Assembly: GCA_002315475.1 (NCBI GenBank)
Contig: DCGI01000050.1
Location: 139 to 55,746 of the forward strand
DNA: 55,608 bases
DNA from: Christensenella sp. UBA1782
Lineage (GTDB): Bacteria > Bacillota > Clostridia > Christensenellales > DTU072
Direction: 5' to 3'
This document shows positions 2,322 through 20,834 of the stretch, piece after piece. Both the position numbers and the translations under genes were made by a program. Numbering within the stretch: position 1 is the stretch's first letter; each line of letters begins with the position of its first letter. The notes beneath the pieces were generated by a model, which did no database searches, was not told the DNA's origin, and saw only the letters and a list, made by a program, of their open reading frames with translations.

Positions 2322-3320
2322 CTACTCGAATTGTTTTTCTACCGTACACTTCATCTTTTTGGAAGTGGTGAATCCGGTTGAGACTTCAATTTCCACCGTT
2401 ACACGCACGACCGAACAGTCATACAACTCGTCGTCCAGTTTTATGGTATTCCTCCCTTCGTTTAACTTAATACTTGGGTGTTCTCCGTTCTTTTGACGGA
2501 TATAGGCCTTAATGGACTTTATTTTTTTGCCACCGACATAGGTTGCGTTAATAACAAAATTCAAAAAACGTTTTCCCTTGCCGAAGCCGAATAAACCCGT
2601 TTGCGTCAAGAATCCGTCACCGTCCAACATTTCCACGCTGAAAGTATCCTTGCCTTCTTGCACTTGGGCACTCGACGGCATAACGTTGCGTTCGAAAATC
2701 GGTTCTTCTTGTTCGACCGGAACGGGTTCGTAGTTCGGCACCTCTTCCGGTTCCATGGATAACAAATAATCCACGTTATCGATTTTTACTTCTGCGAGCG
2801 AAGGGGTTTTTAACGTATCGATTAAGTAGTCTATCATGTAGTTATAGTCACGAACCATGATAACTATCTCGCGTTTTACTTCCTCCTCTAACTTATGTTT
2901 TTGGTCATTGGCTTGACCATTGGTAAAACGAAGATCTCTCTGTAAATCATTTTTGCCCAAAAGCATCCAGCACATATACTCTATGGCTACCGAAGGATTC
3001 CCGGAAAGGCTCTTTCCATCCTCATCCGTCTGTAACATACGCGGTGCATCCATGACACCGTCCAGTATCAAAGCGATTTTGGTCACAAGAATTTGGAAAT
3101 TCGTTACAAAGGAATTACGATTCTTATTCCTGATGGCACGTTTGGTTTCATTATACCAGTTTTGCACCGTATTCAACGCAATTTTTTCCCGAATATAAGC
3201 ATCGGCGTCGGGTTTTATTACCAAAGGTACTACTCGTTGCCGCAATGTATGTTTCTTTGGGTGCTTTTGAACATCGTTTTCCGGTTTCGTTCCGCTTGTA
3301 TTTTGTTGTTGATTATCCAT
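2322..3320 (-). CDS. hypothetical protein: helical N-domain, acidic/Pro linker, beta-rich C-domain
   Basis: 332-aa ORF with ATG preceded by GGAG. It has its own sigma70-like promoter upstream, and the WYL gene follows 27 nt downstream with a GGAGGA RBS. No family recognised. Confidence 0.7.
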   Translation of the reverse strand: MDNQQQNTSGTKPENDVQKHPKKHTLRQRVVPLVIKPDADAYIREKIALNTVQNWYNETKRAIRNKNRNSFVTNFQILVTKIALILDGVMDAPRMLQTDEDGKSLSGNPSVAIEYMCWMLLGKNDLQRDLRFTNGQANDQKHKLEEEVKREIVIMVRDYNYMIDYLIDTLKTPSLAEVKIDNVDYLLSMEPEEVPNYEPVPVEQEEPIFERNVMPSSAQVQEGKDTFSVEMLDGDGFLTQTGLFGFGKGKRFLNFVINATYVGGKKIKSIKAYIRQKNGEHPSIKLNEGRNTIKLDDELYDCSVVRVTVEIEVSTGFTTSKKMKCTVEKQFE

Positions 3321-3481
3321 TTTCTTCTCCTTCGTTTACGTTACTGTTTTTTCTTTGCCGTTTGTCGGCAAAAATGTTTTTTCTTCTTGATAACAAAAGT
3401 CTTTTCCGAAAATCGGAAACGCGTCGGCACTCTGTTTCGCGACACTTTTTTCGTTGTCTTTACCGACTATTAGAATACAAT

Positions 3482-3510
3482 ACTTTTACCGTTTTGTCAA
3501 TGTATCTTTC
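3482..3510 (-). promoter_or_regulatory. sigma70-like promoter for the 2322-3320 / WYL transcription unit
   Basis: On the minus strand: TTGACA (3505-3510), exact 17-nt spacer, TATTCT (3482-3487). This would give a 5'UTR of about 155 nt. Confidence 0.45.
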
Positions 3511-3598
3511 CGAAAAAAGATACCGAACGACGTTACGGGAAAAAACAAAAAAGCATTATGATTAAGGGAACGGCGTAGGCGGTTCGTTCCGTTCTTTT

Positions 3599-4309
3599 TT
3601 ACAAAGTCTCGCTCAGCCAGCGCAAAATCGCCGTCCAACGTATATCGTGAATATCTACGGCTTTGCCCTCCATGCGAGGACAATCATACATACCGCTGAT
3701 GCAAAGATAATGCCCGTTGCAGGGACCGTCGTGAAAGATGCAATCGCCTTCCGAAAACGGGGTTTCCCGACCGCCGTTAGACTGCGTATTCGCCTGTTTA
3801 CTTGTAGAAGCACTTTTCTTCCCGACCGTAGGAGAAACGGACGTGGTCGGCGTAGCAACCGCATTTTGCCTGTTCGTCGATATGCTCGGTGCCGACGTCG
3901 GTGCCGTCAAGTTTCCCTCCGAGAGGGACGGTTCCGTCACGAACGGTGTAGGCACCCTCTTTTTTTTATCTTCCTTCGGTGCAATCGGCGTTTTTGCATA
4001 GTAATAATTGCCTTCTTGAGAAACGACCTCTCCCAATGTGTCTATTATTTCGAGAAATACTGCTTGCGACGCCTCTTCATAGACTTCGTAATACCGTAAT
4101 CGCAAAGACGAAACGTCTCCTTTTTCGGCAATGGCTGCGGCAAGCAATCCCATTTTTTGATCCAGCACGAAAAAACAGTCCGCTTGTTCTCGGGCATCCC
4201 AATCGTTTTGGCATAAATCGGCAAGACAGGCGTACACGTAAAAAGGATTACACAAAAACACGATATCGTGTGTCCTGCATACTGCGGCAAGTGCTTCTCG
4301 AAAACGCAA
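3599..4309 (-). CDS. hypothetical protein: N-terminal helical domain, Ser/Thr/Pro-rich linker, Cys/His-rich C-terminus
   Basis: 236-aa ORF with a TTG start 5 nt after AGGAGG. The low-complexity linker is 'TAPTSAPSISTNRQNAVATPTTSVSPTVGKKSASTSKQANTQS'. No family recognised. Confidence 0.65.
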   Translation of the reverse strand: MRFREALAAVCRTHDIVFLCNPFYVYACLADLCQNDWDAREQADCFFVLDQKMGLLAAAIAEKGDVSSLRLRYYEVYEEASQAVFLEIIDTLGEVVSQEGNYYYAKTPIAPKEDKKKRVPTPFVTEPSLSEGNLTAPTSAPSISTNRQNAVATPTTSVSPTVGKKSASTSKQANTQSNGGRETPFSEGDCIFHDGPCNGHYLCISGMYDCPRMEGKAVDIHDIRWTAILRWLSETL

Positions 4310-4403
4310 CGTATCCTCCTTTGTTTCCCATGCTCATAAAAAAACTTACTATACGTTCGTCGCAAAGTTCGACAAAGCCGTATAGCAAGCCTCTTTTTTT
4401 ATC

Positions 4404-5240
4404 TTATTGATAGCGTGCCTCTTGATAAAGGCGTCTGTTTGCTTCGGTGCGGAACATGACCGCCAAAGATACGTCGTCCCCGTATCCGGTTTTTTCACCG
4501 AGCCGAACAATCCAATCGTTTACGTTTTCTCTCTTGCCGTTCGCCAATTCCGTATAAACGGGCAAGATAAAGGATTTCGCAAAATTGGGTAAATTTTGAT
4601 AGGGGTTAATGATGCCGTCGGTGCAAAGGAATACGCCGTCATAGTCGCGAATATTGTAAAAATCCACGTGAATATGATAATAAGCGTCTTCCGAACACAT
4701 GGAATAGGTATAGTTTGCCACCGTTTCGTCGCTTGTTTCCTCTAAAATCGGCGTAACCACCCCTTTCTTGACGCCGAAAATACCACCGTCTCCCAAACTG
4801 ACGCAAAGTAGGTATTTTCCCAAAATCATGGCACCGTTTAAGGTCGTGCCGTAGGCTTTGGCAGGGTTGTTCTTCAAGCGGAATTGATCACGTTCGGAAA
4901 GCATTTCGATTTCCTTCTTCCCGATGTGATTCTGTTCCAAATCTTGTTCCACCAAAGCATTCCACCGACACAGAATATCCATTTTTATTTTGTTAAGAAC
5001 CTGTTCCTTCGGCTTGCCGTACAGAACCAACGAACGGACGCTCTTAAAAGCGTCGATGATGGCTTGACAGGCAAACTTACTGCCTCTGTCGCTTCGAATA
5101 TACACGTCTGATCCGTGTCCGTCGCAAACGGCAACAATCGTCCTCGTTTCGTCATGATAGGATACGGAAAAATCCTGACAGGGTTTTCCCGTTTTTAAGT
5201 GAGAAAACCCCACGTTGGTTTTGTTAAAAAACTCAATCAT
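4404..5240 (-). CDS. PP2C-family Ser/Thr protein phosphatase (TerY-P triad component)
   Basis: PP2C motifs 'CQDF', 'VAVCDGHGS', 'LGDGG', 'LCTDGI' and 'GDDVSLAV'. I place the start at the internal ATG (5240), which overlaps the upstream vWA stop by 8 nt; the ORF track extends to 5303. Confidence 0.85.
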   Translation of the reverse strand: MIEFFNKTNVGFSHLKTGKPCQDFSVSYHDETRTIVAVCDGHGSDVYIRSDRGSKFACQAIIDAFKSVRSLVLYGKPKEQVLNKIKMDILCRWNALVEQDLEQNHIGKKEIEMLSERDQFRLKNNPAKAYGTTLNGAMILGKYLLCVSLGDGGIFGVKKGVVTPILEETSDETVANYTYSMCSEDAYYHIHVDFYNIRDYDGVFLCTDGIINPYQNLPNFAKSFILPVYTELANGKRENVNDWIVRLGEKTGYGDDVSLAVMFRTEANRRLYQEARYQ

Positions 5241-6024
5241 CCTGCCACTCCCACGAGTCAATATCGTCGCTGATAGTCTGCTGTATTTGTTGTCTGATAT
5301 CATTTGTCACCTGATTTTCCGTATTTTGACCGATTCCCTGCGTTGTCGTACTGTCGGAGGACTTGACCTTTGAAGCCGTCATCACGATAATCTTAATAAT
5401 CTTTTCCAAAAGTTTTGCATCAAAGCAAGTAATGACGTCTCCGTTTTCACCGACGAAATCTCGAAGTACCTGCACCGTTCTGCCGTCATTTAACTCAATA
5501 GCGATGCCGTATCGAATTGCTACCTTAAACCATGGGAGTTTGTTCAAAATTTCCATTTCTTCCGTCAACGGCCACTTTGTCGGGTGCCCGTCCGTCAATA
5601 ACAACACGATGGGTGCCACGCCTCCGAAATCGGGCATAATGCCGCCTTTCGCTTCCTTTTTCAATAAGTCGGCAAGCTGCAAATAAGCCGTATGTAAATT
5701 GCTCCAACCACCGGCGCGGATATCCTTAAAATCAAATTCTTCCACCGCTTTCATCCTATCGTGATTCAACAAGAACGCTTCGGTAGAATAGGTGATAACC
5801 GTAAGATAAAAATCCACGTTGACGTTTTCGTTTTGTAAATCCGTCAAATACTGTTTGATGTCGTGAATAGCGTGATTCACTTGACCGATGCGTTCTCCCC
5901 GCATACTCGTGGAACAGTCCACCATGAGGATGACGTTCAAGCGTTGTTTAGCAATCTTCTCATCCATTCTGTCGGGTTTCCAAACAGGTTTTTCCGTATC
6001 GTTTCCTTGTATCGTTTCTGCCAT
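5233..6024 (-). CDS. TerY-like von Willebrand factor A (vWA) protein, copy 2
   Basis: MIDAS motif 'VDCSTSMRG' plus 'LLLTDGHPT'. S/T-rich then acidic Trp-containing tail 'SSDSTTTQG...DSWEWQDD'. Paralogous to 6206-6919. Confidence 0.85.
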   Translation of the reverse strand: MAETIQGNDTEKPVWKPDRMDEKIAKQRLNVILMVDCSTSMRGERIGQVNHAIHDIKQYLTDLQNENVNVDFYLTVITYSTEAFLLNHDRMKAVEEFDFKDIRAGGWSNLHTAYLQLADLLKKEAKGGIMPDFGGVAPIVLLLTDGHPTKWPLTEEMEILNKLPWFKVAIRYGIAIELNDGRTVQVLRDFVGENGDVITCFDAKLLEKIIKIIVMTASKVKSSDSTTTQGIGQNTENQVTNDIRQQIQQTISDDIDSWEWQDD

Positions 6025-6205
6025 ATTTCTTTCCTTTTTCTCCGATTCATGATTATGTGGAACGGTACGTAAAAATACCGTTTCGATGTCTTTTTCTCTC
6101 TTTTTGTAAAAATCCCTTCTTCAGAAACGAAGAACCCGTAAGAATCGGAAGTATACGTGCCCTAAGCGGCACGCAACTACTTCCTTTTCTTTTCGGGTTT
6201 CTTGA

Positions 6206-6919
6206 TCAGTTCCAACCGTCCTGTACTTCTTCGTCCAGCTTTTGAGCGATTTGTTGTTGCGTCGCTTGATTGTTGTCGGTTACTGCGGTATTGGTAGAAC
6301 TCGACTTTGCCTTCGATGCGGTGACGGCAATCACGCGAATGATTTTCCGAAGTGCTTCCGCCGTATATACCTGCAAAACGGTTTCCGGATTGCCGGTAAA
6401 GGACGTCAGAATGTTCATGGCTTCGTCACTCTTGATAAAAATCGCCAAAGCATACCGCAAAGCCGCTTTGAACCAGCCTCTCTTCTTTAAGGCGTTTAGG
6501 TGGGCTTCCCAATCGGGACTGGTCGGCAATCCGTCCGTCATCAAGATGAGGATGGGCGCCACACCGCCGAAGTCGGGCATTTGACCGCCGTCCGCTTGCT
6601 TCATCAGGCACTTTTCCAGTTTATCGAAAGCATCGGAAAGGTTGGTTTCTCCCTCGGGAGCAAGATCTGCCCACTTAAAATCGGAAACCGTCTTTCCTTC
6701 GTTATAAACCCACGATGCGTGATCGCTGAACTTTAACGCGTGAATCTTGATGATTGCTTCCGATGTGTCTTCTTGGATTTCGGGCATGATACTCATTACG
6801 TCACGAATGGCGTTATTGACCGCCCCCAACTTTTCTCCGCTCATCGAACCGGAATTATCGATAATAAAAATCAAATTCAGTTCTTGCCGTACGATACCGT
6901 TTTCTTCTCTGTCTGCCAT
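6206..6919 (-). CDS. TerY-like von Willebrand factor A (vWA) protein, copy 1
   Basis: MIDAS motif 'IDNSGSMSG' plus 'ILMTDGLPT'. Tail 'KSSSTNTAVTDNNQ...EEVQDGWN'. The start lies 2 nt after the kinase stop. Confidence 0.85.
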   Translation of the reverse strand: MADREENGIVRQELNLIFIIDNSGSMSGEKLGAVNNAIRDVMSIMPEIQEDTSEAIIKIHALKFSDHASWVYNEGKTVSDFKWADLAPEGETNLSDAFDKLEKCLMKQADGGQMPDFGGVAPILILMTDGLPTSPDWEAHLNALKKRGWFKAALRYALAIFIKSDEAMNILTSFTGNPETVLQVYTAEALRKIIRVIAVTASKAKSSSTNTAVTDNNQATQQQIAQKLDEEVQDGWN

Positions 6920-6921
6920 AG

Positions 6922-8223
6922 TTACTCAATCTCTCCTTGTGTTGTATTGTTGAATTGTATTGTTAAATTGCGTGCCAACAGTATGACGCCGTTTCCCGCA
7001 AATATTTTTTCCTTACCCGTTACGTCTCTGACCACCACTTCCTGCGGAAGAGCCAAACGCAATCCCCAAAGGCTCGGGTTGTTCTTGTTGGAGATTACCC
7101 TGCCGACCGGCGTGCAGTAATCGTCGGAATACTTATCTAAGTGATGCCTGAAGATTTCTTTGCCCAAATCCAACACGATACGGTGTCTGCCCACGTGCAA
7201 AACGCATACGTCCTTCGTCGGTTTTCCGCAATAGGGACAAATCTTATTCGGTTGTTTTTCTTCAAAGCCGTAGATATAGTCGCTTTGGCAATAGGGACAG
7301 GACATAACCTCGTCACGATATTTGCAAAGGAACTTATTCCACTCGATTTCCGTCGTTCTGGCGTTTTCTCGGTCGGTTAAGCCGTCCACAAAGGTACGAT
7401 GAAACGCCTCTTTGATATAAATCGGAATGGAGAGCCATTTCTTGATCAAGGCGGTATGATAGCCGCGAATCGGTCGATTGCTCCTGTCCGTTTTATGATA
7501 AACGAATACCGGATTCTTGCCGTACATTTCAAAAATGGCTTGTTCGTCCATTATCTCGTAGTCTTTGAGCTTTTCCCCTTCAAACGGTCTTCCTTTACAC
7601 AGTGCCATAAACAATACGACAGCCAAAGAGAACCGATCGGAGTGGGTATCGGGATTCATTTCTTTCCGAACCACTTCGGGTGCCATAAACTTGATGATGC
7701 CCTGAATACCTAAGTTGTTCTTGTCGGCGGTAACGTTATCGTTGTCGCAAATCAGCAAATCGCCGGTATTGGGATCCAAGAAAAAGCCGCCGTCGTTCAA
7801 GTCTTGATAGGAGTATCCTTTTTCGTGCAACTTCTTAAACGATGTACACAGACTGATGCACCACTTCACCATGATAAACTTGTTCTTAAACTGTGCCTTT
7901 TCGTCACCGTTGACGTACTTGGTAAAAGAAACATAGTTCTGCGGACGCAGATCCATCAAATAGCCGACTTTACCTTCGTATTCGAAATACCGTTTCGGCC
8001 ACAAGAAGGTTTCGGCGGGGCTGCCGCGATCGATCAAACTCTTCAAGTTCTTTTTGAACTCGGGTTTGACTTCATTGATGTACACCTTCAAAGCATACTT
8101 TGCGCCGTTCATGGAAACAAGATACACCTCGCCTTGCCCGCCTGCCCCCAAAAGGGACTCTACGACCAACTTGGTACCGTCCTCCAATGCAACAACTTCG
8201 TTCTGTTTTAGTTTCATTTGCAA
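6922..8223 (-). CDS. Ser/Thr protein kinase with C-terminal zinc ribbon (TerY-P triad kinase)
   Basis: Gly-loop 'LGAGGQGEVY', 'YALKV' Lys, degenerate catalytic loop 'YQDLNDGG', 'ICDNDN' in place of DFG, and 'FMAPEV'. These are followed by 'CPYCQ...CPYCG'. The ATG at 8217 is an alternative to the TTG at 8223. Confidence 0.85.
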   Translation of the reverse strand: MQMKLKQNEVVALEDGTKLVVESLLGAGGQGEVYLVSMNGAKYALKVYINEVKPEFKKNLKSLIDRGSPAETFLWPKRYFEYEGKVGYLMDLRPQNYVSFTKYVNGDEKAQFKNKFIMVKWCISLCTSFKKLHEKGYSYQDLNDGGFFLDPNTGDLLICDNDNVTADKNNLGIQGIIKFMAPEVVRKEMNPDTHSDRFSLAVVLFMALCKGRPFEGEKLKDYEIMDEQAIFEMYGKNPVFVYHKTDRSNRPIRGYHTALIKKWLSIPIYIKEAFHRTFVDGLTDRENARTTEIEWNKFLCKYRDEVMSCPYCQSDYIYGFEEKQPNKICPYCGKPTKDVCVLHVGRHRIVLDLGKEIFRHHLDKYSDDYCTPVGRVISNKNNPSLWGLRLALPQEVVVRDVTGKEKIFAGNGVILLARNLTIQFNNTTQGEIE

Positions 8224-8283
8224 TCCGTCCTTTTTTATTATTACCGCCCCGTTTTTTATGCGGTTTGGGTTGTTGTGTTTTTC

Positions 8284-8904
8284 CTATCCTTGAATGCTCT
8301 TGGCGCCCAGACAAAGGGTAACCTTTTCGACCATCTCTTGATTCTTGGATGCTTCGCAATGCTTTTTGATGGCAATAAGGTTCTTAAAGAGTTTTTCGGT
8401 ATGTTCTTGCAACACAAACCGTTCGTTTTCCAAACTCTCTATCGAACCGCCGTTATGTTGTAACGAGCAGATTCTGTCGATCGACTTAAAGACCATCTTG
8501 TAGAGCTTTAAGGTCTTGTCTTTGTCGGGAGAGTATTCGAGGATGCTCTCGTCGATAACCGGCAAAGCCGAAAGAACAAAGTCGGCTGTTTCCAACGCTT
8601 TTACGCCTTTCGCGTGGTTTTTCGACAGCTCACGAATGGCTTCGCCCCCTCTTTGCATACCTTCCTTCTTGATGGAAGATATGACGGCGGTCTTGGTATC
8701 GACGTACTTAAAGTGAATCACCGCGTCGATGTCGTCCTTGTTCAGATACGTGCTGTTAATCAAATCCCTGCAAGTGACGGTTTTCAAAAACATGGGATGC
8801 ACGATGGGAACGGGTAAATCCACGAAACCGATTTGATCCGAAATGGTTCCCGACGTCTTTTTGAAAGACTTGATTTCTTTACTTTGTAAAAATTCTATCT
8901 TCAT
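8284..8904 (-). CDS. small protein resembling the N-terminal clamp / clamp-helix region of RNA polymerase beta-prime (no Zn ribbon, no catalytic domain)
   Basis: Segments match E. coli RpoC (recalled) by eye: 'GFVDLPVPIVHPMFLKT' vs 'GHIELASPTAHIWFLKS', 'FVLSALPVIDESIL' vs 'ILTVLPVLPPDLRP', and 'TLKLYKMVFKSIDRICSLQ...ENERFVLQEHTEKLFKN' vs '[20 protein letters not shown]...[17 protein letters not shown]'. RBS GAGAGG. Confidence 0.6.
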   Translation of the reverse strand: MKIEFLQSKEIKSFKKTSGTISDQIGFVDLPVPIVHPMFLKTVTCRDLINSTYLNKDDIDAVIHFKYVDTKTAVISSIKKEGMQRGGEAIRELSKNHAKGVKALETADFVLSALPVIDESILEYSPDKDKTLKLYKMVFKSIDRICSLQHNGGSIESLENERFVLQEHTEKLFKNLIAIKKHCEASKNQEMVEKVTLCLGAKSIQG

Positions 8905-8943
8905 ACTGTACCTCTCTTAAGTATAGATGTTTTTTCCTTTGTC

Positions 8944-9168
8944 TTAGACAAAATCGTTATTGTTTATCGATAAACCGTATCGATGTCCGACTTGTGCCAA
9001 ACCTCCCTGTCCTGCGACGTCGCCTTCGTGCTCGTCGCTTTCTTGCGGCAGATTTGGATTTTTGAAAAACAGTGGATGCACTTCGAAAAAGGGAAACTCC
9101 GTAAAACCGACTTGTTCCTAAACAATTCCCGATACTTTCCTAAAAAACGGTAAGTCTTTCGCGTGCAA
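8944..9168 (-). pseudogene. decayed third copy of the beta-prime-clamp-like gene (in-frame TAG, truncated)
   Basis: The minus-strand frame reads '(TTG)HAKDLPFFRKVSGIV*EQVGFTEFPFFEVHPLFFKN...'. It aligns with 'SKEIKSFKKTSGTISDQIGFVDLPVPIVHPMFLKT' of 8284-8904. The TAG is at 9118-9120, and similarity is lost after the VHPLF motif. Confidence 0.4.
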
Positions 9169-9224
9169 TCAATCGACTTTTATTTGGTACACCTCTCTGT
9201 TTTCCATTGTAGACCAATTCCGTA

Positions 9225-9761: not shown

Positions 9762-9773
9762 CGTTTCTCCTTC

Positions 9774-10328: not shown

Positions 10329-10330
10329 AC

Positions 10331-12108: not shown

Positions 12109-13944
12109 TCATTTCTCGCTCCCTTCTTTGTAAGAAATTTCGGTGATTTGCAAAAACAATTCTTCGTCGTCCCATGCGTGCAGTCCCGCATACTCCAAAA
12201 AGGCTTCTTCCACGTTCTTTTCACTCTCTTCGCAGTAGGTTTTTCCCTCCCCGTCAAAGAACTTCAAATAGATTTCTTTGGCGGCATCGAACCCTTTTTC
12301 GCAACCGGTGCCGTATACCTCCAACACCGACAAGTCGGCAAGTGCGTACGAAAGATAATAGCAGGGAGATTCTATCACGACGTACCGCCAATAGCTTTCG
12401 TTCCCTTCCATGCCGTACGTTTTTGCGATTTCGGCAAAAGCGGTATCGTACTCGCTCTGTGGAATACTCCCCTCGTAAACCTTTCTTTCGAATTCGTCCA
12501 CGGCGCAAGCGAGCAAAATCGAGCTGCATATCGAATCCATTTGTGCGCATTGTACGTACTTATAGACACTGCTGCCGCGTGCTTGCAAAGTCTCTTGCAG
12601 ATACGTCAACAAAAGGAATTCGTCCCCTATCGACTGCATTTCCTTAATGTCGTAAGAATCGTACTCCGCACCGCAAATATCGGCAAAATAATGCCCGTAT
12701 TCATGCACGAACGTGAATAACGTGGAATAGTTTTCCCTTTCCATATATAAGATAGGCTTTTCCAAACCTTCGTTCACGTAGGTAAAAGCTCCCGCATAGG
12801 CGTTTTCTCCCGTACCGATATAGTAATTTCCCTCTTTGAAAATGTCGTTGGCACAGTCGAAAAAGTTATATTCGGATGTCGCGTTCTCCCCCATCCTTTC
12901 CAAATACGACGCAAGCGTTTCCGAAGCGATGACGGAGGTTTCTATCGATTCCGCAAGCAACGCCGTCAAAGTACTAAGCCACGTCGGCATCCTCCCGAAA
13001 AACAATCCGATTCCGTCCCCGACTCCCATATCGGAATAGAGATTTTCGAAAAGTTCTTCGCTGTACTCCGAAAATTCCCGATAATACGGTACGATATACT
13101 CCTTCACCAACGCTTGCATTTCTTCGATTTCGGCAAGGTCTACGCTCCGTCCGTACAGGTTTTCCTGCGCGTATTGATAAAAGGTATCGTATCCGGCAAG
13201 AACGGCGTAGCGATTATTCTTTTCCACGTAATCTTTATATAAGGATAATACCTCTTCGCTGTTCGTCGGATCGGAAATTTTCCGAAACGCCCGTTCGATT
13301 TCGTTGATTTCGGACGTTAAAGCGGCTTGTTCCTGCGCTTTGTCGCCGAGCGAAAGAACGGCGTCGACGTCGTCCTGCGTCCAGCCGTCTTCCTCGCTGA
13401 AAAAGTATTCTCGGTACTCCGTTTCGTAAACCAACGGAAATAAAGAAAGGTAGTTTTCGTTATAATCGGCGAGCACCTGCGATATTTCTTCGTAATCGTC
13501 GGCGTATTCGATACAGTCCAAACAGTACCGAACGTAAGCGTACGCCTCCTGCACTTCCAAGTATTCTTGATAGCCGCAATAGCGGTCGTATATTTCTTCA
13601 AACGCTTTATTCTTTTGATACAGTTCACTGTCCTTGACAAAGCCGTCGGTGTTCTCGTCATACCGATCCGCCGCCGCAATCGCCGTCTTGACGTCCCGTA
13701 AAGCCGTAGCGATTTCCCCCTCTTTTTCTTCGTCGTACGAATAGACGAAAACGTCTTGATAGATGTTCAGACTTTCCCGTCTTGACGTATGCGGGCATCC
13801 CTCTTGCTCGCAAGAAGCCACTCGAATATAATCGTCCGCATACGAATAGCTGCAAGTATGCTCGGGTACCGTATCGAAAACGGTGCAACCGAACAGTAAC
13901 GTACACAGAACCGCACACAAAACGCCAATGCCTACCTTTTTCAT
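12109..13944 (-). CDS. lipoprotein zinc metallopeptidase, M3 (oligoendopeptidase F)-like
   Basis: Signal peptide plus lipobox 'LCTLLFGC'. HExxH motif 'FVHEYGHYF' with a downstream Glu ('DIKEMQSIGDEF'). Strong GGAGGA RBS. Confidence 0.65.
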   Translation of the reverse strand: MKKVGIGVLCAVLCTLLFGCTVFDTVPEHTCSYSYADDYIRVASCEQEGCPHTSRRESLNIYQDVFVYSYDEEKEGEIATALRDVKTAIAAADRYDENTDGFVKDSELYQKNKAFEEIYDRYCGYQEYLEVQEAYAYVRYCLDCIEYADDYEEISQVLADYNENYLSLFPLVYETEYREYFFSEEDGWTQDDVDAVLSLGDKAQEQAALTSEINEIERAFRKISDPTNSEEVLSLYKDYVEKNNRYAVLAGYDTFYQYAQENLYGRSVDLAEIEEMQALVKEYIVPYYREFSEYSEELFENLYSDMGVGDGIGLFFGRMPTWLSTLTALLAESIETSVIASETLASYLERMGENATSEYNFFDCANDIFKEGNYYIGTGENAYAGAFTYVNEGLEKPILYMERENYSTLFTFVHEYGHYFADICGAEYDSYDIKEMQSIGDEFLLLTYLQETLQARGSSVYKYVQCAQMDSICSSILLACAVDEFERKVYEGSIPQSEYDTAFAEIAKTYGMEGNESYWRYVVIESPCYYLSYALADLSVLEVYGTGCEKGFDAAKEIYLKFFDGEGKTYCEESEKNVEEAFLEYAGLHAWDDEELFLQITEISYKEGSEK

Positions 13945-14045
13945 GAGTATCTTTCCTCCGTCGTTAGTATTTTCCTTTCCGAAGCCGACCTTTTCGGAAA
14001 GAAGGGAAAAAGCCTTACGAAAAGCCTTCTCCCCCCTCTATCTTA

Positions 14046-15359
14046 TCAAGAATTCTGCATAAGTGCAACCAATTCTTGATAATCCAGCTGTTTCCTGTCT
14101 ATCAAGGCTTCGGCAATACGGGTGATTTCCTCGCGGTGTTCTTCCATAAGGAAACGCACGATCTTATCGCTTTCGGACAGAACGGAAACGACGAAATCAT
14201 GCCGTCTTACTTCGAGGGTATCACTGACACCGTAACGGCGAACCGACGACTGGAATTGACAGTTTTCATAGCCGTAGAATCCTTCTTCGCACATACCGTT
14301 GATGATTTCCTGCGCCTTGGCAAGGTCGGAAACGCAACCCGCCATACGCTTGCCGAGGAACACTTCGGTCGCGATGCCGCCCGCTATTGCCACCCGAACG
14401 GTCTGCTCCAGGCTTTCCTTCGTACTGTAGTCGTCCTTTTCGGAACGGTTCAAGATGCTACCGGTCGAGCTTCCCTGCGGAATAATCGAAGCGTTGATGA
14501 TATGCTTCTTGTAGTACAGACTGATAAAGGCGTGTCCCGCTTCGTGGTAAGCCGTCGCTTTCAGCCTTTCGGAATTGTCCAAATCAATCGTCTTCGGAAT
14601 GTCACGCAAGGTTACCCGTTTCATGGCGGAGATAATGTCGGCTGTCGTGATGGTGTCGCCACGACGCTGTACGCTGTTGATGACCGCTTCGTTGGCGATA
14701 CACTCTATATCGGCACAACTGCATCCCGCCGTATCCAGTACCAGACCTTGTATGTCGACGGAATCGTCCAACTTGATTTGACGGGTATAGTAGTCGAATA
14801 TCGCCTTTCTGTCCCCTTCTTCGGGTAAATGGAACTGCAACATACGATCAAACCGTCCCGTACGCAGGAGGGTATCGCTCAACAAACGTAAATCGTTTGC
14901 CGTAGCGATGACGATGGATTTGCCTTCCCGACCGATGGCGTCGATGGCTTGCATCAGTATCTTTTGGGTGTTCAGGTTTTCGGGAACGTCGTATTGCCAC
15001 TTGTCATACCCCGCAAACTTATCGATTTCGTCGATGAAAATGATGCATTTGCCGATTTCGTGTGCCTGCGCAAAGGTATCCACAATCAGCTTATCGATAT
15101 TGACGCCCTTCGTCAAGCCTTCGGCTTCGCTCACTTCCAACAACGGTACCTCGCTCGCCTTGCTGATGGCTTTCACCACTTTGGTCTTGCCCATGCCCGG
15201 TTTGCCGTACAACAAAAAGCCTTTCGGGAAGCGAGCGCCGCTCGCAAGGTATTCCTCTTCCCGAATCAACATGTCCACTACGCCCATGGCGTCCTTCTTG
15301 ATACTTTCGTAGCCGGCGATTTCGTTAAAAATTTCTTGTATTCTTTCTTGACTGTTCAT
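14046..15359 (-). CDS. soluble FtsH-like protease: AAA+ ATPase fused to an M41 zinc peptidase, no transmembrane segment
   Basis: Walker A 'GKPGMGKT', Walker B 'IIFIDEID', SRH 'TANDLRLLSDTLLRTGRFDR', M41 'AYHEAGHAF'. The N-terminus starts directly with the AAA module. Confidence 0.85.
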   Translation of the reverse strand: MNSQERIQEIFNEIAGYESIKKDAMGVVDMLIREEEYLASGARFPKGFLLYGKPGMGKTKVVKAISKASEVPLLEVSEAEGLTKGVNIDKLIVDTFAQAHEIGKCIIFIDEIDKFAGYDKWQYDVPENLNTQKILMQAIDAIGREGKSIVIATANDLRLLSDTLLRTGRFDRMLQFHLPEEGDRKAIFDYYTRQIKLDDSVDIQGLVLDTAGCSCADIECIANEAVINSVQRRGDTITTADIISAMKRVTLRDIPKTIDLDNSERLKATAYHEAGHAFISLYYKKHIINASIIPQGSSTGSILNRSEKDDYSTKESLEQTVRVAIAGGIATEVFLGKRMAGCVSDLAKAQEIINGMCEEGFYGYENCQFQSSVRRYGVSDTLEVRRHDFVVSVLSESDKIVRFLMEEHREEITRIAEALIDRKQLDYQELVALMQNS

Positions 15360-15366
15360 GCTTCGT

Positions 15367-16521
15367 TTACTCCTGTTCTTGCATTTGATTGGTCGCTTTC
15401 ATGTAGTTTTCCATTGCTTTTACGTCAAATTCCGCAATGGAAGTTCGGACGGTTTTCCCCGCCTTTTCAATATCCGACATGCCGATAAAACCGGCTTTGC
15501 CCGTTTCGATTTCTCGCTCGATGGCAAACATTTTGGCACATTCGCACATTTCAACGGTATCCGCTCCACTGTAGTTTTCTGTCAGGCGAACCACTTCCTC
15601 CTCGCAGTAGTCCTCTCCCATCGGTGCTCCGTCGAACGACAGAGCAATCAATTTCTTCCTTGCTTCTTCGCTGGGTAACGGTACGTATATCTTCCTGTTG
15701 AACCGTCCCGGTCGCAAGAATGCGGTATCCACGTCCCATGGACGGTTGGTCGCCGCAAGTATCACCAAATTATGATTGCCGTTCTCTTCGAATCCGTCCA
15801 TTTGGTTGAGTAGTTCATGCACCACTCTGTTCATCGCTTCGTTCCCTTCGCCCGAACGTTTCATGCCGATAGCTTCAAACTCGTCGAAGAAAATAATGGC
15901 TTTTCCGCTCTGACGAGCCTTATCGAACAGCTCTTTGATGTTTCCTTCGCTTTCGCCGAACCACTTGGAAAGCAGGTCGGAACACTTTATCGGAAAGAAA
16001 CTGGCTTGCATATCCTTGGCGATGGCTTTGGCAATCATGGTCTTCCCCGTACCCGGCAAGCCGTACAGCAGGATACCCCCTCCCGTCTTCTTGTTGTACC
16101 GCTTATATAAGGACGGGTACATGAACGGGTAAACTACCTGTCTGCGGATTTCCTCCTTCACGTCCTCCAAACCGGCTACCCTGTCCATAGCGTTTTCCTT
16201 CTTCTTGAACATTTCGCTGAACTCGTTGATGGGTATATTCAGTCCCATGGCGGTGTCCTCGATGTTGGTAAAAAGGGTTTCGTAAGACGAAGCGTCCGAC
16301 AAATCGACACACCTGTCCAACAGTTGTTTGGCCTTATCGATAAAACTCGGACGCAACTCGAAAGCAACGTTCCTTGCGATGTTCAAAAGCGTCCCTACCG
16401 CACAAACGATGGCTCGCTTTCCCGTTTCTTCGTTACGCAGAGAAAACTGCTCCAAAGCATACCGATAAAACTTCAAAAAGGTCTCTTGTTCTTGTTTGAT
16501 ACAATCTTGTTTACGATTCAT
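15367..16521 (-). CDS. classic-clade AAA ATPase (Vps4/katanin/CDC48-like) with an N-terminal helical (MIT-like?) domain
   Basis: 'GILLYGLPGTGKT', 'IIFFDEFE', 'ILAATNRPWDVDTAFLRPGRFNR'. About 115 aa of helical N-terminal region. Confidence 0.85.
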   Translation of the reverse strand: MNRKQDCIKQEQETFLKFYRYALEQFSLRNEETGKRAIVCAVGTLLNIARNVAFELRPSFIDKAKQLLDRCVDLSDASSYETLFTNIEDTAMGLNIPINEFSEMFKKKENAMDRVAGLEDVKEEIRRQVVYPFMYPSLYKRYNKKTGGGILLYGLPGTGKTMIAKAIAKDMQASFFPIKCSDLLSKWFGESEGNIKELFDKARQSGKAIIFFDEFEAIGMKRSGEGNEAMNRVVHELLNQMDGFEENGNHNLVILAATNRPWDVDTAFLRPGRFNRKIYVPLPSEEARKKLIALSFDGAPMGEDYCEEEVVRLTENYSGADTVEMCECAKMFAIEREIETGKAGFIGMSDIEKAGKTVRTSIAEFDVKAMENYMKATNQMQEQE

Positions 16522-16697
16522 TCATGCTCCTATGTTGTAAAAAAAAATGGTTGAAAATTTGCAAAAAACTGCAAAAAATGAGAAAGAAAAGGGTAAAATA
16601 TATACGGAAACCGGAGCGTCAAAAAATGCTCCGAAAAAATACTCCTCTCTTACCCTTTCTCCTCTATTTGTAGTTCCCTCTTACGGAACTTCTTTCC

Positions 16698-17057
16698 TTA
16701 TGCAATTTCGTCTTCTTCGTCGTACATACCTCTCAGCCGTTCCTCCATACGGGCGTATTGTACGCTGGGTTTCTTGAAAAACTTCTTAGAAGTCTTTAGC
16801 AAGATAATGATGTTGCTTTCTTTCTCAACTTCAACGATGGCTCTGTAAATACGTTCATAAGCCTTCTGTACGGCTACGTTCTTGCTTTTGGATAACGCTA
16901 AAACGTCGTCCAACAACATTCCGCCGTTCTTAGAAAAGAGCTTATCAACCAAAGCACAATACTTTTGCGTAAACAAAAAGTATTTTTGGTTATTCGCGTT
17001 CATAAAAAAGGTGAGTTTTCCAAATCTGCTTGCATCACAAAAAACGGTAATTTTCAT
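16698..17057 (-). CDS. hypothetical 119-aa protein with an acidic C-terminal tail
   Basis: ATG with an AGGAGGA RBS upstream. Ends in 'GMYDEEDEIA'. No family recognised. Confidence 0.55.
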   Translation of the reverse strand: MKITVFCDASRFGKLTFFMNANNQKYFLFTQKYCALVDKLFSKNGGMLLDDVLALSKSKNVAVQKAYERIYRAIVEVEKESNIIILLKTSKKFFKKPSVQYARMEERLRGMYDEEDEIA

Positions 17058-17190
17058 TCGTAAAAAAATCCTCCTATAGATTTTACGGTGTGGTGTTTTT
17101 GGTTAAAAAAAATCGGATTTATTGTCATCCGACAAGGTAAAGTACCCCTTCTTTTTTCTGGGTACCAAGGCACGACTATAAAAAAAATTT

Positions 17191-17219
17191 CATCCCCTTA
17201 TACTATGTATAAGGGGATG
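17191..17219 (-). terminator. Strong (bidirectional) rho-independent terminator after the polymerase-like gene
   Basis: 12-bp perfect stem CATCCCCTTATA / TATAAGGGGATG with a 5-nt loop, and T-runs on both strands. Confidence 0.75.
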
Positions 17220-17283
17220 TTTTTTGTATTTTGGAAAATTTTACAAAAAAACGGAAAAAAATTGTTAACTTTTGCGAGCGAGC

Positions 17284-19998
17284 CTATCTCTTCCCGAAGG
17301 TATAGCCGCAAAGGTTGACGGTGCCGTTCGGCATCTCGTACAGCTCGGGTAGCGAAGTCGTCCCCTTCTGCAAAAGGGTACGCACGAGGGGATTGTTCTC
17401 CTGCAAAATCGCCGAATAAAACAACCAGTCTTCCTCTTGTTGTTTTTCGCACCACTGAACGAGCAGACGTATTACGTTTTCACTGCCAATCATTTTTTGA
17501 ATCTCGATATCCCGTTCCTGACGCATTTGCATAATATCTTCTTGGATGATTTCCTGTTCGGACTCCGCAAGATTACCTAACAAAAAGTACTTGAACTTTA
17601 GTTTCTTTTCATAACGACGGTATATTTTCATGATTGCGTTCTTGCGGGCGTAGTCGGTCGAGGTCGTCTTTTGGGAAACCTCTCCGAATAGGGCGGATAT
17701 GGGTAGCAACTCCAATTTACCCTCTCTCCCCTCCCGTAAATCGCAACGGTCATTCACGCAACTTAAAATCAAATCCATCGGCGTTTTGTACAGGCGAAAC
17801 GTACCGGATACGCCCCGATGATTTTTCTTCGCCTTTATTTCTTCGATGCATTGGAAAAATTGCGGTTTTGCCAAAAAGTCATCCTTGATGTATTTTTCGC
17901 TTAACTCTTTCATGATTCCCTTGCAATCCACCCCGAAGTTTCTTTTCGCCTTATCGATTTCGATACCCGACAGAACGGAGAGGATACAAATATCGTGATA
18001 GATTTCCCGGCAGAAATCGCTATCTTCCGGCTTTCCCGAAGAGAGTTTTTCCCACAGAATACCGTTGAGCCGTTGCGAAAGGTTGACGATTTGCCCGATG
18101 GCGTTTTCACTGTTATAGATATCCACTTGGGTTAAGTCTAACGTTTCGCCGTCTTTTTCGTCAATGGCGCAGACGGGGACTTTGAAGAGGTCGTAATTCT
18201 TTTCGGCATTACGAACCAACGTCGGATCGGAAGTCATCAACATGGTATCGGAGTCGTAGTCGCATCCGTTCAAACGCTGTTGTACGTTTTCGCCGACGGC
18301 GTTGACGCAAACGATATTGTTCCCTAAGTCAAAATACTCCCAAACGTCGTCTTTCGTTTTGTTGGTGACAAGATACAGATTGCCCATCGTGATATGGGGT
18401 GAACGGGCGCAAAGGATTTTTTCTCCGTCTTGAAAACGCATACACCGCACTTCCCCTTTTTGCAGAGTGAGGTTTTCGGGAGAATACGTTCCGATGACCG
18501 ACCGTAACAATTCGGGGCCGTTGCCGAACAGGGTGGCGTTGGTACCGTCGACGAGGAAATGCCCTTTTTTCATCATTTCTTTCATCGACCGTATTGCCGT
18601 TTCCCGAAAATTATAATATAATCGTGTTTTACGGAAACCTTCGTTGTGCCGAATGAGGGAAAAAATCAATTGGGAACGGTTAAGCAGACTATCTTCCCAC
18701 GCTACGGTGTCCGTCGACTCCTGTTCCTCTTTTTCCCGATTGGAGAGGTTGGAATAATAATAACACATGACGGACGGATCTTCGTTCATTTGTTTGATCA
18801 GGTTAAAATTCCCTTCCAAAAAGGAATAAATGCTTTCTTGGTCGATTTGTACGGTGTTCAATAATTGATAGCTTGTACTTACCATCCTTCCGTTAAAAAA
18901 CTTCGTTCTTTTATCGGTCTTAACCACGCCGAAGGTATCGGTCACGTTATTTGCCCAGTTTTGTATGTTTTCCGACGAAAGTTTCGTATCCTTGCAAAAT
19001 TTCAGATATTTCAAACTACTCGGCGTGGTAATCATGACGATTTGATGAATATCGGTCGCCAGCGTCACGCCGCCGTTTTCGGTCAAAACGGATAAATCGG
19101 TGATGCCGTTATCGGCAAACCATTTTTGAATTTTGGTACGGAAGGCACAAGACTTGAAAAACTTATTCCGCAAAAGCATCATGTGCTTATCGGCGTACCC
19201 GTCTTGAAAAACGCTTTCGTCGAGGAGCGCCTCCCCGTCCCAAATGGTATTGGTTACGATGGCTTTTCCCTGCTCGGCAACGATTTTTCCGTCCTCTTCC
19301 CGCACGCTGACCACTTCTTCTTCAAACGAAGAATACCGATCGGGTACAAACAGTATACCCTCCAAAGGAATACGAACCACGCCTTTTAACGAGCTGAGAG
19401 AAAGGGCTTTATAGGCTTCCCACGTCGCCAGCTTTACGGGATTCCATTTCAAACCGCATTCGCCCCATTTTTCCATGCTCCGCAATAAAGATTTTTGAAT
19501 GAAAAGGCATTTCCCCATACGACTGCTGCCGGCACTTCTTTTATAGCGCACGTACTCGACGCCGTTTATGCAAAAACCGTTTTCGTACAGTTTTCTTCGG
19601 AGCTTGAAAACGTCGAGGAGAACCTTTCCTTTCGGTTTCTTTTCTTGCTCGGTGTCCTTGCCTTTCTTTTTCTTCTTTTGGGATACTCTTTTGGCTTTTT
19701 GTTCTTCGGTCTCCTCCACCTTTTCCCGAAGGCACCGATCAAAATCCACGTTGACGACGGCGAGGGTATACGAAAAACCCTTTTCGTCTTGAAACGAAAA
19801 CTTCTTTCGTTCTTTTTTCGCATAGATATTTTGTAATTCTACCGAGTCAAGCGACCAATCCAACACGTTGGAAAACAACGTATAATACTTCTCGTTTTTT
19901 TCGGCAGGCAGAACATACCCTTGCTCGGGATTTTCCAACGAGGATCTGACGATGTCGCACGCTTCCAGCGAGAGAATTCTAAAACTATTTTTTCCCAT
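17284..19998 (-). CDS. RdRP/YonO-like single-polypeptide two-barrel (DPBB) RNA polymerase homolog
   Basis: Collinear with hallmarks of the eukaryotic-type RdRP family. First barrel: 'NGVEYVRYKRSAGSSRMGKCLFI', 'YKALSLSS', 'IWDGEALLDESV'. Second barrel: 'ILCARSPHITMGNLYLV', then the catalytic 'NGCDYDSDTMLMT' (DYDSD at 18247-18261; compare DxDGD of RdRPs and NADFDGD of beta-prime). Downstream: 'AIGQIVNLSQ' and 'ICILSVLSGIEIDKAKRNFGVD'. Confidence 0.7.
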   Translation of the reverse strand: MGKNSFRILSLEACDIVRSSLENPEQGYVLPAEKNEKYYTLFSNVLDWSLDSVELQNIYAKKERKKFSFQDEKGFSYTLAVVNVDFDRCLREKVEETEEQKAKRVSQKKKKKGKDTEQEKKPKGKVLLDVFKLRRKLYENGFCINGVEYVRYKRSAGSSRMGKCLFIQKSLLRSMEKWGECGLKWNPVKLATWEAYKALSLSSLKGVVRIPLEGILFVPDRYSSFEEEVVSVREEDGKIVAEQGKAIVTNTIWDGEALLDESVFQDGYADKHMMLLRNKFFKSCAFRTKIQKWFADNGITDLSVLTENGGVTLATDIHQIVMITTPSSLKYLKFCKDTKLSSENIQNWANNVTDTFGVVKTDKRTKFFNGRMVSTSYQLLNTVQIDQESIYSFLEGNFNLIKQMNEDPSVMCYYYSNLSNREKEEQESTDTVAWEDSLLNRSQLIFSLIRHNEGFRKTRLYYNFRETAIRSMKEMMKKGHFLVDGTNATLFGNGPELLRSVIGTYSPENLTLQKGEVRCMRFQDGEKILCARSPHITMGNLYLVTNKTKDDVWEYFDLGNNIVCVNAVGENVQQRLNGCDYDSDTMLMTSDPTLVRNAEKNYDLFKVPVCAIDEKDGETLDLTQVDIYNSENAIGQIVNLSQRLNGILWEKLSSGKPEDSDFCREIYHDICILSVLSGIEIDKAKRNFGVDCKGIMKELSEKYIKDDFLAKPQFFQCIEEIKAKKNHRGVSGTFRLYKTPMDLILSCVNDRCDLREGREGKLELLPISALFGEVSQKTTSTDYARKNAIMKIYRRYEKKLKFKYFLLGNLAESEQEIIQEDIMQMRQERDIEIQKMIGSENVIRLLVQWCEKQQEEDWLFYSAILQENNPLVRTLLQKGTTSLPELYEMPNGTVNLCGYTFGKR

Positions 19999-20828: not shown

Positions 20829-20834
20829 GCCCCC

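Follow-up and report, generated by a model that had tools for sequence, protein, structure and literature searches.

Introduction

YonO, the late-gene polymerase of the prophage SPbeta, is a processive DNA-dependent RNA polymerase that is unrelated to the host core enzyme and transcribes a dedicated set of genes, and the YonO-like polymerases encoded on bacterial chromosomes have had no known role since 2003-2017 (PMC5467207). A second described module, the TerY-P triad (Anantharaman, Iyer and Aravind, 2012; Gao et al., 2020; summarized in PMC11090510), includes a Ser/Thr kinase, by definition one with a Zn-ribbon or an OB fold attached at its C-terminus; the triad is held to be a phosphorylation switch that plugs into other defense systems, and related triads defend alone (PMC11090510). 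Here we describe a locus in which both kinds of module come together with AAA+ proteases. It occupies about 19 kb of the minus strand in a 55,608-nucleotide (nt) stretch of contig DCGI01000050.1 from Christensenella sp. UBA1782, referred to below as the window, and carries genes for a YonO-like polymerase, two AAA proteins, four HslV-like proteins, a TerY-P triad and a WYL-domain regulator.

We conclude that gut and rumen Clostridia have a recurrent chromosomal neighborhood anchored by the polymerase, of which this island is the most elaborate example known. The core genes of the island probably work together, and a role of the island in inter-genomic conflict appears marginally probable. The initial annotation of the window had proposed an undescribed system, and nearly all of its domain calls were borne out by profile, fold and motif analyses. 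No PADLOC model names the island, and no description of this gene combination was found in the literature searched, part of the searching having been too broad to be useful. Every domain family in the island is known; as a system, the assembly of an RNA-dependent RNA polymerase (RdRP)-fold polymerase, AAA+ proteases, a four-paralog HslV-like set, TerY-P and WYL corresponds to nothing known.

Results

A YonO/RdRP-type polymerase anchors the island

Open reading frame (ORF) calling on the window recovered an unbroken chain, all on the minus strand, that spans positions 19998 to 1327 and lies between a hydrogenase gene and fucose genes as the initial annotation had described. The features that form the polymerase and proteolytic part of this chain are, in order of transcription:

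17284..19998 (-), YonO/RdRP-type two-barrel single-subunit RNA polymerase of 904 amino acids (aa), the constant anchor of the neighborhood (motif, phrog_8308, tblastn, fold)
17145..17220 (-), cis element made up of a 13-bp hairpin (CCCTTATAC-N3-GTATAAGGG core), a T-run and a second hairpin (terminator-like scan, covariance model)
16698..17057 (-), orf119 family, a small basic protein of 119 aa accompanying polymerase and AAA (17 loci beside the AAA gene)
15367..16521 (-), classical-clade AAA+ ATPase of 384 aa, CDC48/PAN/FtsH/CdvC-like, with an N-terminal helical domain of ~110 aa (PF00004, 4.5e-43)
14046..15359 (-), soluble FtsH-like AAA-M41 metalloprotease of 437 aa with no transmembrane segment (AAA plus Peptidase_M41, HEAGH)
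9774..12044 (-), four tandem HslV/BPH/proteasome-beta-like paralogs of ~190 aa, here called prs, at 11475-12044, 10900-11478, 10331-10915 and 9774-10328 (family profile, phrog_1040)

The 904-aa protein has no match in Pfam, NCBIfam or PADLOC; it matches phrog_8308 (E=7e-89), a family of unknown function, and its more than 1600 homologues are all unannotated. Sequence and profile searches against PDB sequences returned nothing meaningful, and fold comparison alone worked. For an AlphaFold2 model with a pLDDT of 72, the top 21 Foldseek matches in the PDB were all to RDR2/QDE-1 (E 1e-10 to 8e-6, probability 1.0), with alignments spanning ~600-1030 columns, most of them 820-900, and the significant fold matches were to eukaryotic cellular RdRPs only; the TM-score was ~0.44, so the placement of domains is approximate. 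The octapeptide NGCDYDSD, which holds the DxDxD metal-binding motif, is invariant across an alignment of 30 homologues. By tblastn, the protein also matches a 924-aa ORF of Spbetavirus BUCT082 (E=7e-9, 23% identity over 62% of the query). This ORF occupies the place of yonO: yonK is encoded downstream of it, and the HU gene two genes downstream. Given the DYDSD motif, the match at the YonO position and the RDR2/QDE-1 fold, we identify the 904-aa protein as a YonO/RdRP-type two-barrel polymerase, in keeping with its first reading as YonO/RdRP-like. Judged by its motifs, it is catalytically intact.

The polymerase neighborhood recurs in rearranged form

A scan of one genome per species returned 260 polymerase relatives, from which 80 loci were retained; all 80 come from gut or rumen Clostridia-like metagenome-assembled genomes, plus Pumilibacter muris (L026), a cultured strain that carries the form found on integrative and mobilizable elements (IMEs). 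In these loci ORFs were called, hidden Markov models built from the window proteins were applied, the remaining proteins were clustered, and key clusters were checked with Pfam. Context was counted in the 59 non-redundant loci that reach 3 kb or more beyond the end of the polymerase gene. In 31 of these, NikA/MobC, a relaxase and a large serine recombinase follow the polymerase, which identifies them as mobilizable elements, and four are followed by phage genes (HU, integrase, terminase, portal). Twelve loci have an AAA or AAA-M41 gene with an orf119-family gene, six, the window among them, have HslV-like paralogs as well, and the last six have other genes. In a neighbor-joining tree, the AAA-associated polymerases form a grade that is separate from two clades, a compact one of IME polymerases and one of phage polymerases.

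The initial annotation had asked whether the components co-occur elsewhere, and they do: polymerase, AAA and orf119, the prs tetrad, TerY-P with its partner and WYL recur, rearranged, on unrelated contigs of gut Clostridia. L007 and L008 carry, in order, the polymerase, four prs genes, AAA, kinase, two vWA (von Willebrand factor A) genes, PP2C, an orf236-like gene (see below) and WYL, and L044 carries the polymerase, orf119, AAA, four prs genes, kinase, two vWA genes, PP2C and an orf236-like gene. Partial versions of the gene set are found in L042, L057 and L073, and at least ten loci contain the polymerase, AAA-M41 and orf119 combination. The polymerases of L007 and L044 are only ~45% identical to that of the window and the gene order differs; the combination has therefore been maintained and is not the inheritance of a frozen block. 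In every locus of the AAA group, the AAA gene adjoins either the polymerase or prs.

Viral sequences also hold the polymerase: IMG/VR contains 313 relatives at no more than 40% identity. None of the 80 viral polymerase loci and nine viral prs loci fetched contained AAA, orf119, TerY-P or WYL genes, or a polymerase-prs combination.

Several further associations were seen in the retained loci. An ADP-ribosylglycohydrolase gene follows the polymerase, AAA-M41 and orf119 genes in seven non-redundant loci (L001, L003, L011, L014, L018, L019 and L055), Fic/HTH genes lie near the block in L001 and L011, and the block often stands beside a TRAM/tRNA U5-methyltransferase gene. In four loci (L009:4068-9890, L010:2821-8595, L057:11351-16941 and L066:15878-21525), the polymerase-AAA pair is found with a triad, placed on one side or the other, that encodes a SNF2-like helicase (~1130 aa), a MoxR-like AAA (~370 aa) and a metallopeptidase-vWA protein of the DUF2201 kind.

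Two AAA proteins and a fixed set of four HslV-like paralogs

The proteins first read as a Vps4-like AAA, a TM-less FtsH-like AAA-M41 protease and an HExxH lipoprotein (described below) proved to be a classical AAA, an AAA plus Peptidase_M41 protein and a protein with lipobox and HEYGH. The best NCBIfam matches of the 384-aa AAA, all partial, are CDC48, PAN and CdvC, its Walker A and B motifs are intact, and an orthologous AAA of ~380 aa adjoins the tetrad in L007, L044 and L042. The AAA-M41 architecture is found directly 3' of the polymerase in at least ten loci. The window protein starts 45 residues before Walker A and has no hydrophobic segment, and TIGR01241 aligned to it only from model position 153; lacking an N-terminal transmembrane or periplasmic region, it is predicted to be cytosolic. 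The small orf119 protein has no Pfam, NCBIfam, PHROG or PADLOC match. Membership in IetAS was considered for the AAA proteins and rejected, since NCBIfam IteA scored 106 bits where the cut-off is 510 and the island has no IetS subtilase.

The four prs proteins had been called proteasome-beta/HslV-like, and their family profile matches BPH (5ovu, 1e-6), 20S beta1 (2e-6) and HslV (9e-5), with a match to phrog_1040 of the HslV family (E=2.4e-9). The paralogs alternate between a type with an N-terminal Met-Thr/Ser that keeps GxD and IGxG and a type without the nucleophile. The N-terminal Thr is found in 11475-12044 (MT...) and the Ser in 10331-10915 (MS..., with Asn at the position equivalent to Asp17); the other two (10900-11478 and 9774-10328) have no N-terminal Thr/Ser nucleophile. 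At least one prs protein keeps intact catalytic motifs, and alignment showed the same order of active and inactive paralogs in the window, L007 and L044. To our knowledge, the known bacterial proteasome homologues (HslV, BPH, Anbu) are all homo-oligomers. The presence of four distinct paralogs in fixed order, two of them lacking a catalytic N-terminus, suggests a heteromeric ring.

A metagenome scan with the prs profile found the tetrad on contig L091 as well, and two to three adjacent paralogs on L090, L092, L093 and L096, most contigs in the scan being too short for context; among contigs long enough to judge, the tetrad was never seen beside another anchor. PrsA and its best homologue share 36% identity. 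Phage-like contigs rich in small ORFs (L094, L095 and L098-L107) hold relatives of prs as one or two HslV-like genes and carry no polymerase, AAA or TerY-P genes. We also considered whether the island encodes HslUV itself and rejected this identity: there is no HslU, and the sole HslU match is a marginal one of the AAA-M41 protein to TIGR00390 (E=1.9e-4), in which no stretch passes alone and which lies far below the classical-clade AAA matches.

A conserved hairpin follows the polymerase gene

The cis element begins 64 nt past the polymerase stop with a hairpin that has a perfect 13-bp stem, a 3-nt loop and a T-run (17191-17219). The sequence CCCTTATAC-N3-GTATAAGGG lies 31-64 nt after the polymerase stop in 19 related loci, where the proteins are ~45% identical, and the hairpin is present 3' of the polymerase stop in all loci of the AAA group. 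Pairing is kept in 99% of cells, with compensatory changes in seven of ten pairs, a covariation matched by none of 500 shuffles and by no slid register. A covariance model scored the window element at 57.7 bits and found one copy per locus, with extra copies ahead of the SNF2 module in L066 (15559-15632) and ahead of orf119 in L063 (16023-16096); a further site is L010:1364-1384. In most loci the hairpin is followed by a box, GAGTAGTTyTTGTTATGC, and then by a second hairpin. The conservation of the element shows that a common signal ties the polymerase gene to the genes that follow. This signal could act in termination, as an operator or as a site that the polymerase recognizes; the covariation data leave room for an operator because a DNA palindrome gives the same covariation.

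Loci of the IME clade, which include L016, L020, L021 and L023-L048, carry another hairpin, TTTCCCTTTC-N3-GAAAGGGAA, together with a box of related sequence, GAGTAATCGGCGTAATAG, 45-150 nt past the polymerase stop. For 53 of the 73 loci, the best match to the box anywhere in the locus is found no more than 250 nt past the stop codon of the polymerase gene, a count that speaks to position and not to discovery because the matrix was built from such sites. The box GAGTAATCGGCGTAATAG is common to elements with MobA/VirD2-type and with MobL-type relaxases. In the SPbeta-like phage BUCT082 (L108), a hairpin followed by CGTAATCAGCGTAAT lies at 8594-8640, ~340 nt upstream of yonK, and the 13-mer TAATCAGCGTAAT stands 3' of the hairpin at this place; a position weight matrix scan for the box in the SPbeta-like phage was not significant. 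The signal formed by the IME box and TAATCAGCGTAAT could be an oriT or a YonO-family signal. That the hairpin and box form the YonO promoter is no more than a lead: the primers published by Forrest et al. place the mapped P_YonO start ~1 kb further upstream (PMC5467207).

The TerY-P triad, its partner and the WYL regulator

The regulatory part of the island consists of the following genes:

6922..8223 (-), TerY-P Ser/Thr kinase with a C-terminal Zn-ribbon (CPYC-x17-CPYC) and a beta-rich tail (Pkinase, 1.8e-14)
5233..6919 (-), two TerY-like vWA proteins, at 6206-6919 and 5233-6024 (VWA/VWA_2; DNSGS, DCSTS)
4404..5240 (-), PP2C phosphatase (PP2C_2, 2e-32)
3599..4309 (-), orf236 family, always following PP2C, in which a low-complexity linker joins the N-terminal domain to a Cys-rich C-terminus (homologues in L007 and L044)
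1327..2294 (-), HTH_11 + WYL + WCX regulator spread over two overlapping ORFs, 1905-2294 and 1327-1908 (or 2013) (Pfam, PADLOC WYL)

The presence of a kinase/vWA/PP2C triad of the TerY-P kind, as first annotated, is confirmed by the Pkinase domain with its Zn-ribbon, two vWA proteins with metal ion-dependent adhesion site (MIDAS) motifs and the adjacent PP2C_2 protein. Both vWA proteins have intact DxSxS motifs (DNSGS and DCSTS) plus TDG, and PP2C keeps its metal-binding Asp motifs. Homologues of orf236 are encoded 3' of PP2C in L007 (284 aa) and L044 (443 aa); orf236 has no informative Pfam match and no family match.

The HTH-WYL regulator named in the initial annotation is present in its parts, HTH_11, WYL and WCX, although it is not one ORF: the HTH_11 ORF and the WYL + WCX ORF lie in different frames and would overlap by 4 nt with a WYL start at 1908. 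The L007 regulator is a single gene of 336 aa. Because the same split occurs in two other independent assemblies (L109 and L110), it is not a read error of the window; the two ORFs are either a genuine pair of genes or the result of a frameshift that has become fixed.

Accessory genes, including beta-prime clamp fragments

Interspersed with the genes above are the remaining members of the chain:

12109..13944 (-), lipoprotein of 611 aa with an M3-like HExxH peptidase domain, accessory (lipobox LLFGC, HEYGH, TIGR02289 partial, 4.5e-9)
9225..9755 (-), beta-prime clamp fragment 1, 176-178 aa (rpoC TIGR02386 positions 250-291, E=3.4e-6)
9058..9183, approximately (-), decayed N-terminal remnant of a third clamp gene with internal stop codons (tblastn with clamp206 residues 1-42, 38% identity)
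8284..8904 (-), beta-prime clamp fragment 2, 206 aa (weak RNA_pol_Rpb1_1 match)
2322..3320 (-), orf332, an orphan of this lineage only (no family match, no homologue in any fetched locus)

Two beta-prime clamp mimics and a decayed third had been proposed, and the rpoC and Rpb1_1 matches and the stop-containing remnant at ~9058-9183 agree with this. In many PDB chains, beta-prime residues 265-307 (E. coli numbering) form an ungapped alignment with residues 120-162 of the 178-aa protein. This segment of beta-prime is the clamp helices (E. coli beta-prime ~260-309), the docking site of sigma region 2 and NusG. The part of beta-prime that the fragments retain is the Rpb1 domain-1 segment around the clamp helices only, and the two are 29% identical to each other. 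We know of no stand-alone beta-prime clamp-helix proteins.

Fragment 2 has no other homologue among 5.8 billion clusters. A profile of the clamp pair searched against 1.84 billion representatives matched strongly only the pair itself and found no relatives except genuine beta-prime; all ten of the weaker matches tested carry RNA_pol_Rpb1_1. Word-indexed homologue searches with clamp206 and prsA returned almost nothing because these proteins evolve too fast. Besides the window, two near-identical assemblies alone contain orf332 and the clamp fragments, and we therefore regard these genes as add-ons and not as core. Six other proteins of 300-430 aa (P0127, P0131, P0132, P0134, P0141 and P0142) have a weak RNA_pol_Rpb1_1 match alone, covering the clamp-helix region, and could represent further beta-prime-like proteins in truncated form or else phage RNA polymerase (RNAP) subunits that are split.

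Junctions, transcript structure and flanks

The closely spaced junctions described in the initial annotation agree with the ORF coordinates: overlaps of 4 nt at 11475-11478 and 16 nt at 10900-10915, and gaps of 2 nt at 10329-10330 and 6920-6921 and of 7 nt at 15360-15366. The 8-nt overlap at 5233-5240 is true if PP2C starts at 5240, the start used by independent gene calls on two other assemblies. The block had accordingly been called operon-like. The tight junctions are real, but the terminator-like hairpin after the polymerase gene weakens the idea of a single transcript: with a hairpin and T-run at 17191-17219 and several intergenic gaps of 180-320 nt, one uninterrupted transcript is unlikely. 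Another terminator-like hairpin, at 1288-1313, closes the block after the WYL ORF. The best sigma-70-like promoter match of the region (9206-9235 (-), TTGACA-18-TACAAT, 11/12) sits in the 320-nt gap that holds the decayed clamp remnant, just upstream of the 206-aa clamp gene.

The island is flanked on one side by a [FeFe]-hydrogenase gene (5-1114) and on the other, in order, by genes for FucU, fucose isomerase, an amidohydrolase, a GNAT protein, a major facilitator superfamily (MFS) transporter, an alpha-galactosidase and an M18 aminopeptidase. The GC content of the block (0.42-0.50) does not contrast with that of the remaining window. No tRNA or integrase gene was found at the island or its flanks, no att-like or convincing direct repeats flank it, and no recombinase, relaxase or structural gene was found in or beside it. 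With housekeeping flanks and no mobility genes, tRNA or att repeats, the island does not lie inside a recognizable prophage or integrative and conjugative element, the setting that the initial annotation had named as incompatible with its proposal.

Three other observations concern the surroundings. The L-fucose isomerase gene is present as two overlapping plus-strand ORFs, 21508-22368 (N1/N2 domains) and 22344-23333 (N2/C domains), which suggests a frameshift or a pseudogene beside the island. Directly upstream of the polymerase on the same strand, lies a gene at 20064-20960 (-) that has no counterpart in related loci; its product of 298 aa contains hydrophobic segments and ends in a Cys_rich_CPCC domain. 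Rfam found no known RNA family in the window.

Discussion

A candidate conflict system

The polymerase, the two AAA proteins, the M41 domain, both vWA MIDAS sites, PP2C and at least one prs protein all have intact catalytic motifs. AbiZ/HsdR or LmuA/Avs-like neighbors occur in some loci, and these neighbors, the modular variability of the gene set and the duplication and decay of the clamp genes fit conflict systems. We infer a defense function and read the island as a conflict system that is modular and proteolytic, is anchored by the polymerase and has TerY-P and WYL as its gate, a reading that we hold with the arguments for and against it evenly balanced.

How such a sensor-switch-effector system might work can be outlined, although any specific step of the outline is unlikely to be right as it stands. 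TerY-P would switch the vWA proteins by phosphorylation, WYL would be a ligand-sensing repressor, and the two together would gate an ATP-dependent degradation machine in which the AAA unfoldase would feed a heteromeric HslV-like chamber, with the AAA-M41 protease alongside. The sigma-independent polymerase would provide RNA synthesis without host RNAP, either expressing downstream modules from the conserved element or copying invader nucleic acid. The fast-decaying clamp-helix fragments, acquired and tandemly duplicated in this lineage, would most plausibly titrate a clamp-helix-binding factor or present it to the proteases, which would shut down host-RNAP-dependent, and hence phage, transcription while the island polymerase works on.

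In its fullest form, which we consider improbable, this would be an immune or addiction machine that joins an RNA interference (RNAi)-type polymerase to the first bacterial heteromeric proteasome-like protease, with two catalytic and two structural HslV-like subunits and a PAN/CDC48-like AAA, under a TerY-P phospho-switch. Its polymerase would recognize the conserved hairpin 3' of its own gene and so transcribe effectors without host RNAP, and in this lineage clamp-helix decoys would strip sigma/NusG-like factors.

Several findings weigh against the conflict reading. PADLOC gave no match for either vWA protein or for PP2C, and the kinase matches the mad6 and PD-T4-6 models only, so that the triad is not a close relative of validated TerY-P. 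The split WYL gene may be inactive. The hairpin with its T-run could simply terminate polymerase transcription, and the window copy of the box is degenerate. The neighbors of defense type come from a sample of only a few. The closest polymerase clades are found on mobilizable elements and phages, which makes a mobile-element origin or role a live alternative. Lastly, some window genes are scarcely conserved: orf332 is private to the lineage, the M3-like lipoprotein has a single other occurrence, a 1283-aa lipoprotein upstream of the polymerase in L057, and the clamp fragments, seen only in the window lineage, are absent from every related locus. The AlphaFold2 model of the clamp fragment is poor (pLDDT 50), and Foldseek was uninformative. 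A sigma-titration step would thus be limited to this lineage at most. The initial annotation had cast the clamp mimics as baits for phage factors that attack host RNAP. Since every related locus lacks these proteins, and their only relatives among 1.84 billion representatives are genuine beta-prime, they cannot serve as the core sensor in the recurrent system, and a bait role cannot account for its core mechanism.

Alternative explanations

Chief among the rivals is a module from a mobile element, either domesticated or in decay, whose polymerase would be the element's transcriptase or a primase-like enzyme acting on transferred single-stranded DNA. The proteases, TerY-P and the clamp fragments would then be cargo for host takeover or anti-defense, for example degrading or titrating host sigma so that the element's sigma-independent polymerase dominates. 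We think this possible, if doubtful. It draws on the 31 of 59 polymerase loci with relaxase and recombinase and the four with phage genes, on the 313 relatives in viral contigs, and on YonO being itself a prophage late-gene polymerase; the IME clade has a related hairpin and box after the polymerase gene, and SNF2, MoxR and DUF2201 triads, typical of mobile elements, occur in L009, L010, L057 and L066. However, the window island and all loci of the AAA group are without integrase, relaxase or structural genes within 10 kb, the island has hydrogenase and fucose flanks with neither tRNA nor flanking direct repeats, its GC content is not deviant, and the AAA, prs and TerY-P partners were in none of the viral polymerase loci fetched.

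Ranked next is the accidental stacking of separate systems, a TerY-P and WYL cassette, an AAA/HslV-like protease and an unrelated polymerase, in a variable region with no joint mechanism. TerY-P-like triads do act as stand-alone defense and attach to many systems, a terminator-like hairpin parts the polymerase from the rest, promoter-like sites lie inside the block (for example 9235-9206), and most polymerase loci are without prs and TerY-P. What makes chance juxtaposition improbable to us is the recurrence of the same combination, rearranged, in L007 and L044 at ~45% polymerase identity, together with an AAA gene beside the polymerase or prs throughout the AAA group and a tetrad that never stands beside a different anchor in contigs long enough to judge.

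A host housekeeping or stress module, in which an alternative RNA polymerase and regulated proteolysis would serve under particular conditions, would suit the chromosomal housekeeping flanks, the speculation of Forrest et al. about a host role for chromosomal YonO-like genes (PMC5467207) and the polymerase-AAA-M41 pair standing beside the same tRNA methyltransferase gene in several genomes, but with partners that are patchy and highly variable, fast evolution (best homologue of prsA 36%, none for the clamp proteins), duplication and decay, and sister clades on mobile elements, we consider it very improbable.

Significance

The partnership with AAA+ proteases and the conserved cis element offer a first testable handle on the role of chromosomal YonO-like polymerases, and an RdRP-fold polymerase tied to a conflict system would bear on the proposal that the RNAi polymerase of eukaryotes came from prokaryotes or from mobile elements. 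The fixed four-paralog HslV-like set, half of it non-catalytic and beside a PAN/CDC48-like AAA, would parallel the alpha/beta differentiation of the 20S proteasome, and stand-alone clamp-helix proteins would be a new way to interfere with sigma or NusG docking. Given 260 species-level genome matches for the polymerase family, the system appears to be common in uncultured Clostridia of the human and animal gut.

Comparison with known systems

Like described TerY-P loci, the island has contiguous genes for vWA proteins, PP2C and a Zn-ribbon kinase, and duplicated vWA genes beside a CDC48-like AAA+ have also been reported (PMC11090510). As in CoCoNuT, the triad sits as a module in a larger system (PMC11090510). 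It differs in being linked to a polymerase and proteasome-like proteases instead of nucleases/McrBC, and in having a constant extra partner, the orf236 family. With RNAP beta-prime, the clamp proteins share, on direct reading, an upstream PxxxHPxFL and an ALPV that resemble the zipper/lid region; unlike beta-prime, they stand alone at 176-206 aa, have no Zn-finger and no catalytic parts (double-psi beta-barrel, NADFDGD), and their genes are duplicated, decaying and known from this lineage only.

The proteolytic part resembles several known machines without coinciding with any. With FtsH, the 437-aa protein shares the AAA module and a Peptidase_M41 domain with HEAGH, whereas it has no N-terminal transmembrane/periplasmic region and is encoded beside a polymerase in at least ten loci. 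IetAS follows a similar logic of AAA ATPase and protease, and the island AAA domains match the PADLOC IetA models over the ATPase core only. The prs proteins belong to the Ntn-hydrolase proteasome-beta fold family, as do HslUV, BPH, Anbu and PAN-20S, with an N-terminal Thr/Ser in some and an adjacent AAA+ gene; unlike HslUV, BPH and Anbu, the island has four distinct paralogs in fixed order, two of them without the catalytic N-terminus, and its partner ATPase is a classical-clade, PAN/CDC48-like AAA and not HslU.

The polymerase shares with YonO, QDE-1 and RDR2 the DxDxD catalytic motif, the whole-chain fold (RDR2/QDE-1) and a size of ~850-900 aa. Unlike YonO, the island enzyme is chromosomal and lies outside a phage late-gene circuit, and whereas SPbeta has no AAA+/protease genes, the island polymerase is always paired with them.

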